Positions 13,161 to 18,668 of a stretch of 64,000 nucleotides of DNA are shown one piece after another (position 1 is the first letter of the stretch; each line of letters opens with the position of its first letter). Origin of the DNA: Candidatus Omnitrophota bacterium (lineage in GTDB: Bacteria > Omnitrophota > Gorgyraeia > Zapsychrales > JAKLDJ01); contig JAKLDJ010000007.1 in NCBI GenBank assembly GCA_022703585.1, positions 25,338-89,337 on the forward strand, read 5' to 3'. The position numbers and the translations under genes are program-made. The notes under the pieces were generated by a model. That model was not told the DNA's origin. It searched no databases and saw only the letters and a list, made by a program, of their open reading frames with translations.

Positions 13161-13212
13161 CAATAATAGGTTGACTAAAATAGGATTTGTGTTTAAATAA
13201 GAGAAATAAATA

Positions 13213-13313
13213 ACGGGGAGGCCGTAAGACGGCCTGAGAGTTCCGCTAAGTTTTAAGCGGATGACCCGACGAACCTGATCTGGATAATGCCAGCGGAGGG
13301 AAAGGAAGGTGAG
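13213..13313 (+). promoter_or_regulatory. TPP (THI-box) riboswitch aptamer
   Basis: ACGGGGAGGCCGUAAGACGGCCUGAGAG...ACCCGACGAACCUGAUCUGGAUAAUGCCAGCGGAGGGAA matches the conserved TPP aptamer core (CUGAGA, ACCCG, GAACCUGAUCUGGAUAAUGCCAGCGNAGGGA). Confidence 0.9.
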
Positions 13314-13320
13314 TATGTTT

Positions 13321-13352: not shown

Positions 13353-13397
13353 TTTTCCGCGGGGCCTTTGTTTCGGATCGCCAAAAAAAGGAGAAGG

Positions 13398-14210
13398 ATG
13401 ATGTTTAAAAAAATAACAGAAGCACAGATTAGCCGGGCGATTGTGGGGGAATTTACAAAATGGTTTGATGAGTATATTATTTCCGACGTTATCATTGTCG
13501 GCGGCGGCCCCAGCGGTCTTATGGCAGCGCGTGATCTGGCCAATGCGGGTTTTAAGACGCTCATTGTCGAAAGCAATAATTACATCGGGGGAGGTTTTTG
13601 GGTGGGGGGCTATTTTATGAATACGTTGACATTTCGTGCGCCCGCAAACCAGATTCTTGATGAACTAAAAATCCCTTACAAGGAAATCGAAGATGGTTTG
13701 TTTGTTGCTGACGGCCCGACGGCCTGCTCAAAACTTATCTCCGCTACCTGTGATTCGGGTGCGAAAATTCTTAATTTAACAAAATTCGATGATGTGGTAC
13801 TGCGTCACAGCAAAGTGGAAGGGGCGGTTATTAATTGGGCACCGGTGTCGGCCTTGCCGCGGCAAATTACCTGCGTCGATCCCATTGCGCTGGAATCTAA
13901 AATTGTCATTGATGCCACGGGCCATGATGCCTGGGTTGCCAAAAGCCTTGAAAAAAGAAAACTCCTGGAATTAAAAACATTCGGGCCTATGGATGTCGTC
14001 AGTTCCGAAGATATGGTTGTGGAAAAGACTGGAGAGATTTTCCCCGGGCTTTATGCCATTGGCATGGCGACGGCAACCGTCTTTGGTATTCCGCGTATGG
14101 GGCCGACGTTTGCGGGAATGCTTTTCTCCGGCAGGAAGGCTGCTCAGCAGATTATAAAAAAGCTGGCAGCAAAGGAGGGACTCTTGCGTAAAGAAGCTGT
14201 TGTTGCGTAG
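13398..14210 (+). CDS. thi4: Thi4-family thiazole synthase
   Basis: FAD GxGxxG motif (VIIVGGGPSGLMAARDLA) and the Thi4 core (NNYIGGGFWVGG, IVIDATGHDAW). Start chosen at the MMFKK ATG after RBS aaaggagaagg; the listed ORF begins 30 nt earlier. Confidence 0.85.
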   Translation: MMFKKITEAQISRAIVGEFTKWFDEYIISDVIIVGGGPSGLMAARDLANAGFKTLIVESNNYIGGGFWVGGYFMNTLTFRAPANQILDELKIPYKEIEDGLFVADGPTACSKLISATCDSGAKILNLTKFDDVVLRHSKVEGAVINWAPVSALPRQITCVDPIALESKIVIDATGHDAWVAKSLEKRKLLELKTFGPMDVVSSEDMVVEKTGEIFPGLYAIGMATATVFGIPRMGPTFAGMLFSGRKAAQQIIKKLAAKEGLLRKEAVVA

Positions 14211-14232
14211 GGGGTGTGTCTTTTTGTGATGA

Positions 14233-14278
14233 AGGGCCCTCGCCCGACGCTGAAGCAGTGATGGGCGAGGGCCCTTTT
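14233..14278 (+). terminator. Rho-independent terminator after thi4
   Basis: agggccctcgccc ... gggcgagggccct (13-bp perfect stem) followed by TTTT. Confidence 0.8.
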
Positions 14279-14308
14279 ATGTCTAAAGGGGCGATGATAA
14301 AAAAATAC

Positions 14309-14336
14309 TTGACAAAATTTATGTTAATGTTATATT
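14309..14336 (+). promoter_or_regulatory. Candidate sigma70 promoter for the Rrf2 gene
   Basis: TTGACA, 16-nt spacer, TATATT, about 40 nt upstream of the ATG. Confidence 0.4.
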
Positions 14337-14374: not shown

Positions 14375-14818
14375 ATGAAGATAACTTTTAAAGGCGATTA
14401 TGCGTTAAAGGCGATTCTTGATTTAGCGCTTCATTACGATTCAGGCGAATTGGTAACAAGTTTTGATTTGTCTCAGCGCATCGACGCGCCGATAAAATTT
14501 TTAGAACAAGTGTTGCTGGAATTAAAGAAGGGCGGATTTATTGAAAGTCGCCGCGGAAATATCGGCGGTTATCGATTGGCGAGAGTTCCGGGGCAGATCA
14601 CGGTAGGCGATATCGTGCGGCTTGTGGATGGGCCCAGCGAACCGATTGCCTGTGTGAATAAGGATTATTCCAACTGCGCGGATATCAAGAAATGTATCTT
14701 TAAAGGAATTTGGCAAAAAGTGGACCAGGCGACATCGGGCATTATTGATCATATAACTTTTGAAGATTTGGCTTCGCAAATTAGCATAAACCAAAAAGTA
14801 TTATCCTATTCCATTTAA
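14375..14818 (+). CDS. Rrf2-family transcriptional regulator (IscR/NsrR-like, three-Cys Fe-S type)
   Basis: 147 aa with a winged HTH (SQRIDAPIKFLEQVLLELKKGGFIESRRG) and three cysteines (C-x7-C-x5-C in PIACVNKDYSNCADIKKC) resembling IscR cluster ligands. Confidence 0.85.
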   Translation: MKITFKGDYALKAILDLALHYDSGELVTSFDLSQRIDAPIKFLEQVLLELKKGGFIESRRGNIGGYRLARVPGQITVGDIVRLVDGPSEPIACVNKDYSNCADIKKCIFKGIWQKVDQATSGIIDHITFEDLASQISINQKVLSYSI

Positions 14819-14831
14819 GGGAATACCTAAG

Positions 14832-14918
14832 ATGAACGAAAATCCCAAAAATATTAATATGATGATGTGTTGCATGCGGATGTGTTGCTTCCACGGTAGT
14901 GGAGGAACGCCTGTGTGA
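14832..14918 (+). CDS. Unannotated 28-codon ORF encoding a Cys/Met-rich peptide (candidate leader peptide)
   Basis: atg aac gaa aat ccc aaa aat att aat atg atg atg tgt tgc atg cgg atg tgt tgc ttc cac ggt agt gga gga acg cct gtg tga translates to MNENPKNINMMMCCMRMCCFHGSGGTPV. RBS-like aaggga lies 9 nt upstream. It is below the ORF-track length cutoff. Confidence 0.4.
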   Translation: MNENPKNINMMMCCMRMCCFHGSGGTPV

Positions 14919-14952
14919 GATATCATCTAATATATCAGGCGTAGGACGGGAT

Positions 14953-14992
14953 AACCCACTGCCAAGGAAAGAAAAAGGTCGGTGGGTTTTTT
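14953..14992 (+). terminator. Terminator/attenuator-like hairpin with T-run between the small ORF and the yezD-like gene
   Basis: aacccac ... gtgggtt stem (7 bp, large loop) followed by ttttttatttt. Confidence 0.45.
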
Positions 14993-15026
14993 ATTTTCTA
15001 AATTTATAAAATACAGGAGAGATGAA

Positions 15027-15218
15027 ATGAGCTTGAGCCAAAATACAAAAAGCATCATCAACGATGCCATTGTCAAAGACATACGGGATGCGGTGGATGA
15101 TTTGGAATACGGTACAGTGGTTATTACGGTACACAATAAAAAGATCACCCAGATCGAGACCGCGCGCAAGAAACGTTTCGATGATGTCTGGAAGGTTGAG
15201 GAAGGAGGTGGGATCTAA
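15027..15218 (+). CDS. YezD/DUF2292-family small protein
   Basis: MSLSQNTK...LEYGTVVITVHNKKITQIETARKKRF matches the DUF2292 pattern (YG-V-L/ITIH-QITQI-KxRF). RBS aggaga lies 6 nt upstream. The listed ORF starts 45 nt earlier. Confidence 0.7.
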   Translation: MSLSQNTKSIINDAIVKDIRDAVDDLEYGTVVITVHNKKITQIETARKKRFDDVWKVEEGGGI

Positions 15219-15339
15219 AAATGATTGTTGGCGTGTTGGTCCTTGCCGGACTACCGGTGGGACGTTTTTAAGAATGAATCTAAACGTCGAATGCTACCTG
15301 TCATCTGGAGCGAGGACACAAAAAAAGGAAAATAAAGAA

Positions 15340-16206
15340 ATGAAAAAGTTAATATTGTCTATTGCGTTTATTGTTCTGGCGGTTTTATTTGTAAGTGACA
15401 AGGTGTTTGCCGGTCCGCCATTTAACAATCTTGAAGGTGTCGGGGGTGTCGCGTTTAACCCGTTGGCGTATTTGGCTGATTCCGACGGAGAAAAGAGCCA
15501 TTTAAAAATCGGCAAGACCGAGGTTATTGGCTTACCCAGATTTGGCGGCTGGTATGTGAGCTTGCCGGATGCGAAGATCGATTGGACATCGGTTGGGGTT
15601 GCGGACACGATTTTTAAGCGGTTAGAAGTTTCCTATGGTTATCAAGTTGTTGCCTGGGAAGACCATCCGACGTTTCGCAAGAACAATCTTGGAGCCAAGT
15701 TTCTGGTATTGCCGGAAAACTCTTTTGACACAAAGTTTCTTCCAGCTCTTTCGATCGGAACGATTTATAAGACGACAAGCCATACGGCGTTACGAAAAAT
15801 AGCCGGGTTCTCGGACCTTCGCTCCAGCGGACAGGATTGGTATGCGGTCGCGACCAAGACCATTACTCAGTTGCCGCGTCCGGTCATCGTTTCCGGAGGC
15901 GTGCTTTCTTCTCAAGGATTCGTTACCGGCGTGTTGGGTTTCCATGACAAAAGAAAGACAACCGGCTTTGCCAATGTGGATGTGGTTCTTCCTAAGAACA
16001 TTGTTATTGGTTATGAGTTTAAACAAGGAGAGCAGTTCGCGGTCCATAAAAATGCCAATTATTGGGAAGCGCATTTGGCCTGGCTTGCGAATAATGACCT
16101 GACCCTTATTGCGGCGTATACGGACACCAGCAGTTACACCAAGTCCGGAAATACCAGACAAGGGTTAGGAAGTGGTTTTGTTTTAAGTGCGCAGTATGCG
16201 TTTTAG
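15340..16206 (+). CDS. Secreted outer-membrane beta-barrel protein of unknown function
   Basis: Signal peptide MKKLILSIAFIVLAVLFVSDKVFAG, alternating amphipathic strands, C-terminal aromatic (…LSAQYAF). The listed ORF 15064.. has a long spurious N-terminal extension overlapping the previous gene. Confidence 0.6.
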   Translation: MKKLILSIAFIVLAVLFVSDKVFAGPPFNNLEGVGGVAFNPLAYLADSDGEKSHLKIGKTEVIGLPRFGGWYVSLPDAKIDWTSVGVADTIFKRLEVSYGYQVVAWEDHPTFRKNNLGAKFLVLPENSFDTKFLPALSIGTIYKTTSHTALRKIAGFSDLRSSGQDWYAVATKTITQLPRPVIVSGGVLSSQGFVTGVLGFHDKRKTTGFANVDVVLPKNIVIGYEFKQGEQFAVHKNANYWEAHLAWLANNDLTLIAAYTDTSSYTKSGNTRQGLGSGFVLSAQYAF

Positions 16207-16213
16207 AAAATGA

Positions 16214-17572
<1,359 letters not shown>

Positions 17573-17719: not shown

Positions 17720-17738
17720 CTCATTGAAGGAGATTCTC

Positions 17739-18668
17739 ATGTCGAAAACTTTTTCTAACATTACAAAAACGATCGGTAACACCCCGCTGGTGAAGATTAA
17801 CAAGCTTGCCGAAGGGCTGCCTGCGATCATTCTGGCCAAGCTGGAATTCTTTAACCCGCTCTCAAGCGTCAAGGACCGTATCGGTGTGGCCATGATCGAG
17901 GCCGCCGAGAAAGAAGGGAAGCTCAAGAAAGATTCCGTGATTATCGAGCCCACCAGCGGCAACACTGGCATTGCCTTGGCGTTTGTCGCGGCTGCCAAAG
18001 GGTATCGGCTGGTTTTAACCATGCCTGATACCATGAGTGTCGAGCGCCGGCAATTGCTGGCGATTTTGGGAGCGGAATTGGTTTTAACCGAGGGCGCTAA
18101 AGGAATGAAGGGAGCGGTCGAAAAAGCCGAAGAGCTCGCCCGGCTTACCCCGAATAGTTATGTTCCCCAGCAGTTTAATAATCCGGCGAATCCGGAGATC
18201 CACCGCCGGACCACAGCTGAAGAAATTTGGCGGGATACCGACGGGAAAGTGGATATCTTTATTGCCGGAATCGGAACCGGCGGAACCATTACCGGCGTGG
18301 GCGAGGTTTTAAAACAACGGAAGCCCACGGTAAAAATCATCGGCCTGGAGCCGGCGGATTCTCCGATTCTCTCCGGAGGAAAACCGGGCCCGCACAAGAT
18401 CCAGGGGATAGGCGCGGGTTTTATTCCTGGGAATCTTAACCGCGCGATTATCGATGAAATCATCACCGTGCGCCACGAGGATGCCGGGGAAACCACGCGC
18501 GCGCTCGCGAAGACCGACGGAATCCTGGGCGGAATTTCTAGCGGCGCGGCAGTTTGGGCGGCTTTACAGGTCGGCAGGCGTCCGGAATTCAAAGGGAAAA
18601 CCATTGTAACGGTCTTGCCCAGCTCCGGCGAGCGGTATTTGTCGACCTGGCTTTTTCAAAAACCATAA
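17739..18668 (+). CDS. cysK: Cysteine synthase A (O-acetylserine sulfhydrylase)
   Basis: [23 protein letters not shown]...SVKDRIG...[12 protein letters not shown]... is the canonical CysK/CysM PLP fold. RBS aaggag upstream. The listed ORF starts 15 nt earlier. Confidence 0.9.

Follow-up and report, generated by a model that had tools for sequence, protein, structure and literature searches.

The whole stretch of DNA analyzed in this study (hereafter, the window) comprises 64,000 nucleotides (nt) of contig JAKLDJ010000007.1 from the genome of a Candidatus Omnitrophota bacterium (assembly GCA_022703585.1). Between the gene of an Rrf2-family regulator and a set of genes for sulfur amino-acid synthesis, it contains a short unannotated open reading frame (ORF) with a dense run of Met and Cys codons, followed by an intrinsic terminator; this element, a candidate leader-peptide attenuator, is the subject of the present analysis. 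Coordinates are those of the window, except where another locus is named (Table 1). The downstream genes had been assigned in the original prediction as yezD-like, outer-membrane protein, metY and cysK, and the Pfam matches agree (DUF2292, DUF3034, Cys_Met_Meta_PP and PALP, respectively).

The leader ORF and its family

The leader ORF runs from ATG to TGA with exactly the boundaries and translation that had been predicted for it, and its codons 10-19 encode MMMCCMRMCC (five Met, four Cys and one Arg). The earlier count of Met and Cys residues stands, but they are spread over ten codons rather than the eight originally given. Nowhere else in the 64-kb window, on either strand, do four or more ATG/TGY codons follow one another. 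The ORF does start just 3' of the Rrf2 stop codon (TAA, 14816-14818), although 13 nt, and not 14 as first counted, lie in between.

Table 1. Positions of the leader element, its predicted RNA helices, the surrounding genes and further leader copies
Feature	Position	Strand	Basis or remark
Leader ORF, 28 codons + TGA, ATG start	14832-14918	+	Sequence reading, ORF listing; peptide MNENPKNINMMMCCMRMCCFHGSGGTPV
Regulatory codon run AUG AUG AUG UGU UGC AUG CGG AUG UGU UGC	14859-14888	+	Sequence
13-nt spacer with purine-rich, Shine-Dalgarno (SD)-like GGGA(A) before the leader ATG	14819-14831	+	Sequence; relatives have AGGA/GGAG in the same place
Predicted long hairpin P1 (1:2, anti-antiterminator)	14851-14933	+	Minimum free energy (MFE) fold
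Predicted antiterminator helix (2:3)	14895-14963	+	GGUAGUGG 14895-14902 with CCACUGCC 14956-14963; ACGCCUG 14907-14913 with CAGGCGU 14936-14942
Intrinsic terminator (3:4)	14953-14997	+	Stem 14953-14988, U-run 14987-14997
Sigma-70-like promoter TTGACA-16-TATATT with TG	14309-14336	+	Consensus match only, 11/12 positions
Rrf2-family regulator	14375-14818	+	Pfam PF02082, E = 3e-34
DUF2292 (YezD-like small protein), first regulated gene	15027-15218	+	Pfam PF10055, E = 4e-11
DUF3034, putative outer-membrane protein with signal-peptide-like N-terminus	15340-16206	+	Pfam PF11231, E = 2e-18
metY-like O-acetylhomoserine sulfhydrylase (Cys/Met metabolism pyridoxal-phosphate enzyme, Cys_Met_Meta_PP)	16244-17572	+	Pfam PF01053, E = 3e-136
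cysK-like cysteine synthase (PALP)	17724-18668	+	Pfam PF00291, E = 2e-75
Leader before PAPS reductase, HcyBio, rhodanese, ThiS-family or DUF2061 genes	L003 3076-3232, L005 4442-4611, L079 4442-4599, L141, L085/L092, L175, L152, L180

Alignment of Rrf2 homologues yielded 80 loci from species-representative genomes, nearly all labelled Omnitrophota, and in approximately 22 of these 80 a homologous short ORF with its terminator occupies a gap of about 200 nt 3' of Rrf2, e.g., with the peptides MTTYFHNLNMMKCCMAMCCLRGVGGPPM in locus L001 and MAMYPQDMMCRMMRCLRGRGGPFA in Velamenicoccus archaeovorus LiM (L024). The V. archaeovorus copy spans 4442-4598 of L024, which derives from NZ_CP019384. In the rest of the 80 loci, Rrf2 abuts the next gene and the leader is absent; at one locus (L059) the operon is divergent from Rrf2, and the element is placed before the operon. 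A pattern search of metagenomes (ATGATGTG-N65-95-CCCACTNCC-N10-35-GTGGGYTTT) matched at least 119 contigs, and among the matches listed 116 of 119 belong to the leader family, the other three (L097, L130 and L190) having been rejected as they contain neither the ORF nor sulfur genes. The family thereby extends, as a lower bound, to more than 130 other loci. Conservation of the Met/Cys run 5' of metY/cysK orthologues in relatives, which the original prediction had singled out as a check, is therefore borne out in both collections. A typical in-frame metagenome ORF ends in ...MMMCCMAMCCLxG[RM]GGPPM-stop.

Codon and pairing counts were based on a MAFFT alignment of 111 non-redundant elements (A3). 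In 108 of the 111, the distance from the run to the last sense codon is 45, 48, 51, 54 or 57 nt, i.e., a multiple of three; the stretch past the stop falls into length classes of 36/51/24, with no three-base periodicity. Frame 0 is open in 110 of the 111 elements vs. only two for frame +1. The first Cys codon is TGT in 72 and TGC in 34 elements and never TGR (the search pattern had fixed only its first two bases); the stop, in a single aligned column, alternates between TAA (67), TAG (20) and TGA (13), and most of the variation within Gly and Pro codons falls on the third base. The consensus run, M-M-M-C-C-M-x-M-C-C, contributes on average 4.2 Met and 3.1 Cys per 11 core codons, vs. 0.1 Cys in the tail. 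Neither the sequence nor the length of the N-terminal part is constant (24-39 amino acids for the total ORF), and the best conserved part of the peptide is the C-terminal GGPPM-stop. Judged from this alignment, the ORF bears the signature of translation, and what is conserved in it is the Met/Cys run and the 3' end. An explanation of the Met run as a series of redundant start codons was considered and rejected, most members having a conserved N-terminal extension of 7-20 codons with an SD further 5'.

A few divergent copies were also observed. In L129 (2972-3135) and L162, the same element has an in-frame stop just 5', so that the ORF begins at the MMM run, and the ORF that comes next, about 280 nt further on, is a TMP (thiamine monophosphate) synthase gene and not one for sulfur amino acids; these may be decaying or re-used copies. 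Divergent versions located after Rrf2 in L026 (3128-3250) and L032 (4442-4587) combine a Met/Cys ORF with a different terminator, and L034 (4442-4540) retains only the ORF end and terminator after Rrf2. These three loci may show gain or loss of the element between leader-containing and leader-less Rrf2-metY arrangements.

The ORF end has a further peculiarity: in most members it reads GGAGG-N7-AUG/GUG-stop in frame with the leader (14903-14918 in the window; A3 columns 102-136), and in 101 of the 111 elements the last sense codon is a potential start (AUG, GUG or UUG). This SD and start-stop arrangement may only mirror RNA pairing, yet could hold a ribosome on the antiterminator strand.

Alternative RNA helices and predicted effects of a ribosome

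Folding of the RNA spanning 14819-15000 (RNAfold MFE) produces the long hairpin P1 followed by the terminator hairpin and its U-run at -54.5 kcal/mol, which is more stable than 200 of 200 shuffled sequences (z = -3.6). The 5' arm of P1 (14851-14894) consists of the Met/Cys codons and the 3' arm (14899-14933) of the ORF end, the stop and the downstream AUCAUC. Across the family, P1 pairs GAUGAUGU..UGCAUGG with CC(U/C)AUGUA..ACAUCAUC, the latter comprising the last codons, the stop and non-coding bases beyond it. In the alignment, 87% of the P1 cells are paired, vs. 18-67% when the partner is slid, and the duplex energy is -13.5 kcal/mol vs. -6.8 kcal/mol for shuffles (-17.5 kcal/mol in the window, z = -4.4). 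The 3' strand of P1 is largely non-coding and lies outside the metagenome search pattern.

A second helix competes with both neighbors. The original prediction had asked for an alternative pairing against the terminator, and such a pairing is present: GGUAGUGG from the ORF end pairs with CCACUGCC, which is the 5' arm of the terminator, and a short hairpin noted earlier (acgcctg/caggcgt) lengthens this helix. The hairpin itself is real, but it does not overlap the leader stop codon as had been stated; the stop (14916-14918) is enclosed in the loop of the antiterminator. The antiterminator strand 14936-14963 overlaps the terminator 5' arm (14953-14963), and the two structures are mutually exclusive. 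In the family, the G-x-G-G-P-P-M codons (GGUAGNGGAGGUCCGCCUAU) pair with GUAGGACGGGAC and the terminator 5' arm CCCACUACC; 69% of the antiterminator cells are paired vs. 32-48% upon sliding, the covariation score is 0.135 vs. 0.04-0.07, and the duplex energy is -19.7 vs. -13.1 kcal/mol for shuffles. Covariation also links column 98, the wobble base of a Gly codon, with column 209 in the terminator arm, approximately 100 nt away (Fisher p = 0.009, uncorrected for phylogeny). In several relatives, the full-length MFE structure is the antiterminator.

The terminator stem originally recognized as aacccac (14953-14959)/gtgggtt (14982-14988), starting 34 nt past the ORF stop, proved to be correctly placed and actually longer. 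Its two strands are AACCCACUG (14953-14961) and CGGUGGGUU (14980-14988), and beyond a bulge the stem continues with CC (14962-63) opposite GG (14977-78) (strand (GG)uCGGUGGGUU, 14977-14988). It is followed by the run UUUUUUAUUUU, which extends to 14997. In the family, 92% of the terminator cells are paired, with an A-U to G-C exchange at one pair in two sequences, the U-run is at least 90% conserved, and the duplex reaches -15.4 vs. -8.2 kcal/mol for shuffles. A control pair, the Met/Cys run against the 3' antiterminator strand, showed no gain over shuffles (-8.4 vs. -9.9 kcal/mol). The promoter/terminator scan did not list the leader terminator, whose loop of approximately 13-18 nt exceeds the 8-nt loop limit of that scan; RNAfold does find it. 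RNAalifold applied to 20 sequences returned the terminator and one 3-bp helix only, and the P1 and antiterminator pairs in the family were set by hand and then counted.

The effect of a translating ribosome was modelled by ending the transcript before the 3' arm of the terminator and forcing a ribosome-sized stretch to be single-stranded. In the window, the antiterminator probability is 0 in the ribosome-free RNA, because P1 wins; placing the A site on codons 9-18 raises it to 0.56-0.99, and on codons 20-28 it is back at 0. For the 111 family members, the mean probability is 0.78 with the A site on the run, at most 0.05 from at least 10 codons past the start of the run, and 0.07 at the stop. 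Thus, the antiterminator is predicted to be favored by a ribosome stalled on the regulatory codons and to be blocked by one that has reached the ORF end.

Proposed mechanism and competing explanations

Overall, we consider it likely that the element is a ribosome-mediated leader-peptide transcription attenuator of the trpL/hisL type acting over a sulfur amino-acid operon, which is how the original prediction had read it and which is now supported both by conservation of the ORF and its codon run and by the terminator-disrupting alternative pairing. Such an attenuator would sense the charging of Cys-tRNA and probably also that of elongator Met-tRNA; we infer the Met component, as well as the stalling and the response in vivo. 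In the proposed sequence of events, a transcript starting at the Rrf2 promoter would proceed through Rrf2 into the 28-codon leader. Poor charging of Cys-tRNA and/or elongator Met-tRNA would stall the ribosome on codons 10-19, where it would melt P1 and leave the ORF end free; the latter (14895-14913) could then pair with 14936-14963 and capture the 5' arm of the terminator, allowing RNA polymerase to read through into DUF2292-DUF3034-metY-cysK. With both tRNAs charged, the ribosome would reach the ORF end or the stop and cover the antiterminator strand, in which case the terminator with its U-run would form and transcription would stop. Sensing of both Cys and Met fits an operon that codes for the synthesis of homocysteine/Met (metY) and of Cys (cysK). 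In the window, the attenuator would be layered on the CymR-like Rrf2 regulator encoded just upstream.

The company that the element keeps across loci is consistent with this role. The order Rrf2-(DUF2292-DUF3034)-metY-cysK is common among the 80 Rrf2 loci. Among the metagenome matches listed, the next gene is most often metY, otherwise DUF2292(-DUF3034)-metY-cysK or cysK, and at the remaining loci the next ORF encodes PAPS reductase, HcyBio (homocysteine synthesis), a ThiS-family protein, rhodanese or DUF2061. The presence of the leader before several types of sulfur genes suggests a multi-operon sulfur regulon, and the same context suggests a sulfur-related role for DUF2292, DUF3034 and DUF2061. 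An essential link with Rrf2 was considered and rejected: only a minority of the metagenome loci among the matches listed have Rrf2 upstream. The element is a regulatory module 5' of genes for sulfur assimilation and sulfur amino acids and no appendage of Rrf2, because its neighbors are sulfur genes with or without Rrf2. In the window and the examined metagenome loci, cysS was never found downstream of the leader.

In three contigs (L102 1105-1487, L131 913-1294 and L155 268-653), two leader and terminator units stand in tandem before metY. The first peptide reads ...STMMCFMGMCYQNGRGGPSM and the second ...SMIMCCMTMCCLLGMGGPPMSTLS; in the latter, the usual stop codon carries a mutation and the ORF extends over four more codons.

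Several observations weigh against the attenuator interpretation or limit it. First, the family mean of the antiterminator probability in the ribosome-free RNA is 0.56, i.e., the antiterminator is the default fold in many relatives, and in those members the off state must therefore need a ribosome over the ORF end and not P1. Second, the full-length window RNA at equilibrium prefers the terminator under every mask, so that control must be kinetic and co-transcriptional, as in trp. Third, with a milder mask that is shorter on its 5' side, a ribosome at the stop still leaves an antiterminator probability of 0.62 in the window. Moreover, AUG has no synonymous codons and also takes part in P1 pairing, which makes selection for Met sensing inseparable from selection for structure. 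Covariation is modest, the terminator arm being nearly invariant; the metagenome search pattern itself fixed ATGATGTG, CCCACT, CC and GTGGGYTTT; and the shuffle controls ignore phylogeny. All of the structural support consists of thermodynamic prediction and comparative counting.

Among other explanations, the one closest to the preferred reading retains the attenuator but has it sense a single amino acid, most likely Cys, with the AUG triplets maintained for their part in RNA helices (GAUGAUGU with ACAUCAUC beyond the stop, and GCAUG with the terminal CAUGU). We regard it as unlikely, even though the AUGs of the run do form the 5' strand of P1 and their partners past the stop are conserved, and even though the known precedents are Cys-only leaders (PMC1262725, bioRxiv 10.1101/834739, PMC8632094) and no Met-codon leader was found in the literature searched. 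Against a Cys-only sensor, the Met codon columns 76-78 are ATG in 98 of the 111 elements despite lying outside the scored core P1 pairs, the first regulated enzyme at most loci is metY of the Met pathway (HcyBio being another target), and the masked-fold span that permits the antiterminator takes in Met as well as Cys codons.

A peptide acting in cis as an arrest or parking sequence is very unlikely. Here, G-x-G-G-P-P-M-stop, possibly helped by GGAGG-N7-AUG-stop, would hold the ribosome at the ORF end, and a pause or a metabolite in the exit tunnel, and not simply tRNA charging, would regulate. Pro-Pro is a known slow-translation motif, it occurs within the best conserved part of the peptide, and in the many relatives where the antiterminator is the default, termination would benefit from a ribosome that stays long on the ORF end. 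The same nucleotides are, however, strands of P1 and of the antiterminator, which explains their conservation, and amino-acid changes that keep the pairing are tolerated (CCG to CUG, Leu, in 11 sequences; UUC and GCU as well). In comparison with the SecM/RAPP arrest motifs (R-A-P-P or R-A-G-P), the family ends in G-[RM]-G-G-P-P-M-stop, pairing-keeping P-to-L and P-to-F variants are common, and the window peptide ends in GGTPV with no Pro-Pro. The simplest explanation for the conserved C-terminus is that its codons also serve as an RNA strand.

It is highly improbable that the product of the ORF is a small functional peptide rich in Cys and Met (serving as a carrier of metal, persulfide or redox equivalents, or as the precursor of a ribosomally synthesized and post-translationally modified peptide) that is co-expressed with Rrf2, the hairpin being merely the Rrf2 terminator. 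The ORF is under purifying selection and CC..CC motifs could bind metals, but no specific support for metal or persulfide binding was obtained, and the N-terminal part is free in sequence and length, with the conserved parts coinciding with RNA pairing. The distribution also argues against it: most metagenome loci (among the matches listed) have no Rrf2, the element nearly always lies just 5' of sulfur-assimilation genes, it also occurs as tandem copies before metY, and no modification enzyme or transporter genes were found alongside it in the neighborhoods of the genome and metagenome loci.

Finally, we give next to no credence to a ligand- or protein-binding RNA switch (responding to S-adenosylmethionine, SAM, or bound by CymR/Rrf2) with an incidental ORF, since, although alternative terminator/antiterminator folds are typical of riboswitches too and a stretch GUAGGACGGGACAACCCAC is highly conserved in one subgroup, pairing with the ORF end explains that stretch, no Rfam match was found (see below), and indel periodicity, stop-codon alternation and Cys wobble restriction need translation.

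With the attenuator as the preferred reading, a broader and rather doubtful extension may be formulated as a phylum-wide 'ribulon', in which one leader family would coordinate metY, cysK, PAPS reductase, HcyBio, rhodanese and ThiS-like genes via Met-tRNA and Cys-tRNA, with termination by programmed ribosome parking at G-G-P-P-M-stop with its internal GGAGG-N7-AUG-stop. The parking idea arises because the antiterminator is the predicted ribosome-free default in many members.

Surrounding signals, known systems and implications

On the forward strand between 14000 and 15600, the only promoter-like site lies upstream of Rrf2 (Table 1), and this candidate is likely to be the start of a transcript carrying Rrf2, the leader and the operon. 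The regulator is identical to a protein of a Candidatus Omnitrophota metagenome-assembled genome. Its homologues with 60-74% identity number in the hundreds, and certain database sources label close ones as cysteine metabolism repressors (CymR-like). The SD of DUF2292 (approximately 15014-15020) lies outside all three leader helices. Further upstream, a thiamine pyrophosphate (TPP) riboswitch (RF00059, 64 bits, E = 3.5e-11) occupies 13204-13318 (+) directly 5' of a Thi4-family gene (13368-14210), and in several relatives Thi4 is likewise found immediately upstream of the leader element or of Rrf2. A perfect long GC-rich hairpin (GGGCCCTCGCCC...GGGCGAGGGCCC, followed by TTTTAT) at 14227-14281 (+), 3' of Thi4, is probably the Thi4 terminator, and it sets Thi4 apart from the Rrf2 promoter. 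Within the regulated operon, the 120-nt gap between DUF2292 and DUF3034 contains a terminator-like hairpin (CTTGCCGG-ACTA-CCGGTGGG, then ACGTTTTT) at 15242-15261 (+), which may be a second attenuation or processing point.

The element is not a known riboswitch, because no Rfam 15 family matched 14819-15026 at E up to 10 or five homologous loci at E up to 1. The window scan did detect the TPP riboswitch located 1.5 kb upstream. A full-text literature search found neither a Met-codon leader attenuator nor attenuators or leader peptides in Omnitrophota/Omnitrophica. The closest likeness is to the classical attenuators of Proteobacteria (trpL, hisL, thrL, leuL, ilvL and pheL), which also have a short ORF with a run of end-product codons. 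As in the trpL/hisL class, four RNA segments form 1:2, 2:3 and 3:4 pairings, and a terminator with a U-run stands directly 5' of a biosynthetic operon; as in thrL (Thr/Ile) and ilvL, two amino acids would be read out. Unlike that class, the leader is found in Omnitrophota and uses Met and Cys codons, for which we found no classical attenuator precedent; the window leader is internal to an operon, with a regulator gene ending 13 nt before it; the leader stop lies inside the antiterminator loop instead of between segments 1 and 2; and the antiterminator is the predicted translation-free default in many relatives.

Cys-codon leaders have been described in other phyla. In mycobacteria, polycysteine leaderless small ORFs (sORFs) were validated experimentally and unmask a ribosome-binding site (Canestrari et al., bioRxiv 10.1101/834739), and Cys leader peptides without terminators were predicted in Actinobacteria (Seliverstov et al., 2005, PMC1262725). 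The mycobacterial sORFs share with the Omnitrophota element a Cys-codon run in an unannotated short ORF before cysteine genes, ribosome stalling as the sensor (proposed for the Omnitrophota element) and the use of one device (a 'ribulon') at several loci. In contrast, they are leaderless and have no terminator hairpin, whereas the Omnitrophota ORF is SD-led and followed by a terminator with a U-run; the Omnitrophota run mixes Met with Cys, and sequence similarity is not evident. A leaderless start is not seen in the window, where the ORF follows the Rrf2 stop closely, behind GGGA, and the only promoter-like site is that upstream of Rrf2. The uORFC-8-2 motif (Brewer et al., 2021, PMC8632094), located before cysS in Rhodobacterales with two Cys codons and a terminator, is likewise a predicted ribosome-mediated transcription attenuator, in which stem 1 contains tandem Cys codons and is followed by a terminator and its U-run. 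By description, gene context and codon run set it apart from the Omnitrophota leader: the motif belongs to alpha-proteobacteria, has two Cys codons and no Met run, and precedes a tRNA synthetase gene (cysS).

With the S-box (SAM-I), the Met/Cys T-boxes and CymR repression of Firmicutes, the element shares sulfur amino-acid gene targets of the metY/cysK type; the output of S-box and T-box, as of the proposed attenuator, is premature termination vs. read-through, and an Rrf2/CymR-like repressor gene adjoins the window leader. Unlike S-box and T-box, the proposed sensor is a translating ribosome and not a ligand- or tRNA-binding RNA, and it has no Rfam match.

Omnitrophota are known almost only from metagenomes and have no genetic tools. 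While the mechanism is textbook and the conceptual advance moderate, this would be the first cis-regulatory RNA or leader system described for the phylum and, as far as the literature searched shows, the first leader-peptide attenuator built on Met codons, here interleaved with Cys. It adds an unannotated family of small ORFs with more than 130 members, and the compact part of approximately 170 nt is a candidate Cys/Met-responsive switch for heterologous hosts. For the biology of these organisms, the element provides a marker for annotating sulfur-assimilation regulons in their genomes and ties DUF2292, DUF3034 and DUF2061 to sulfur metabolism.

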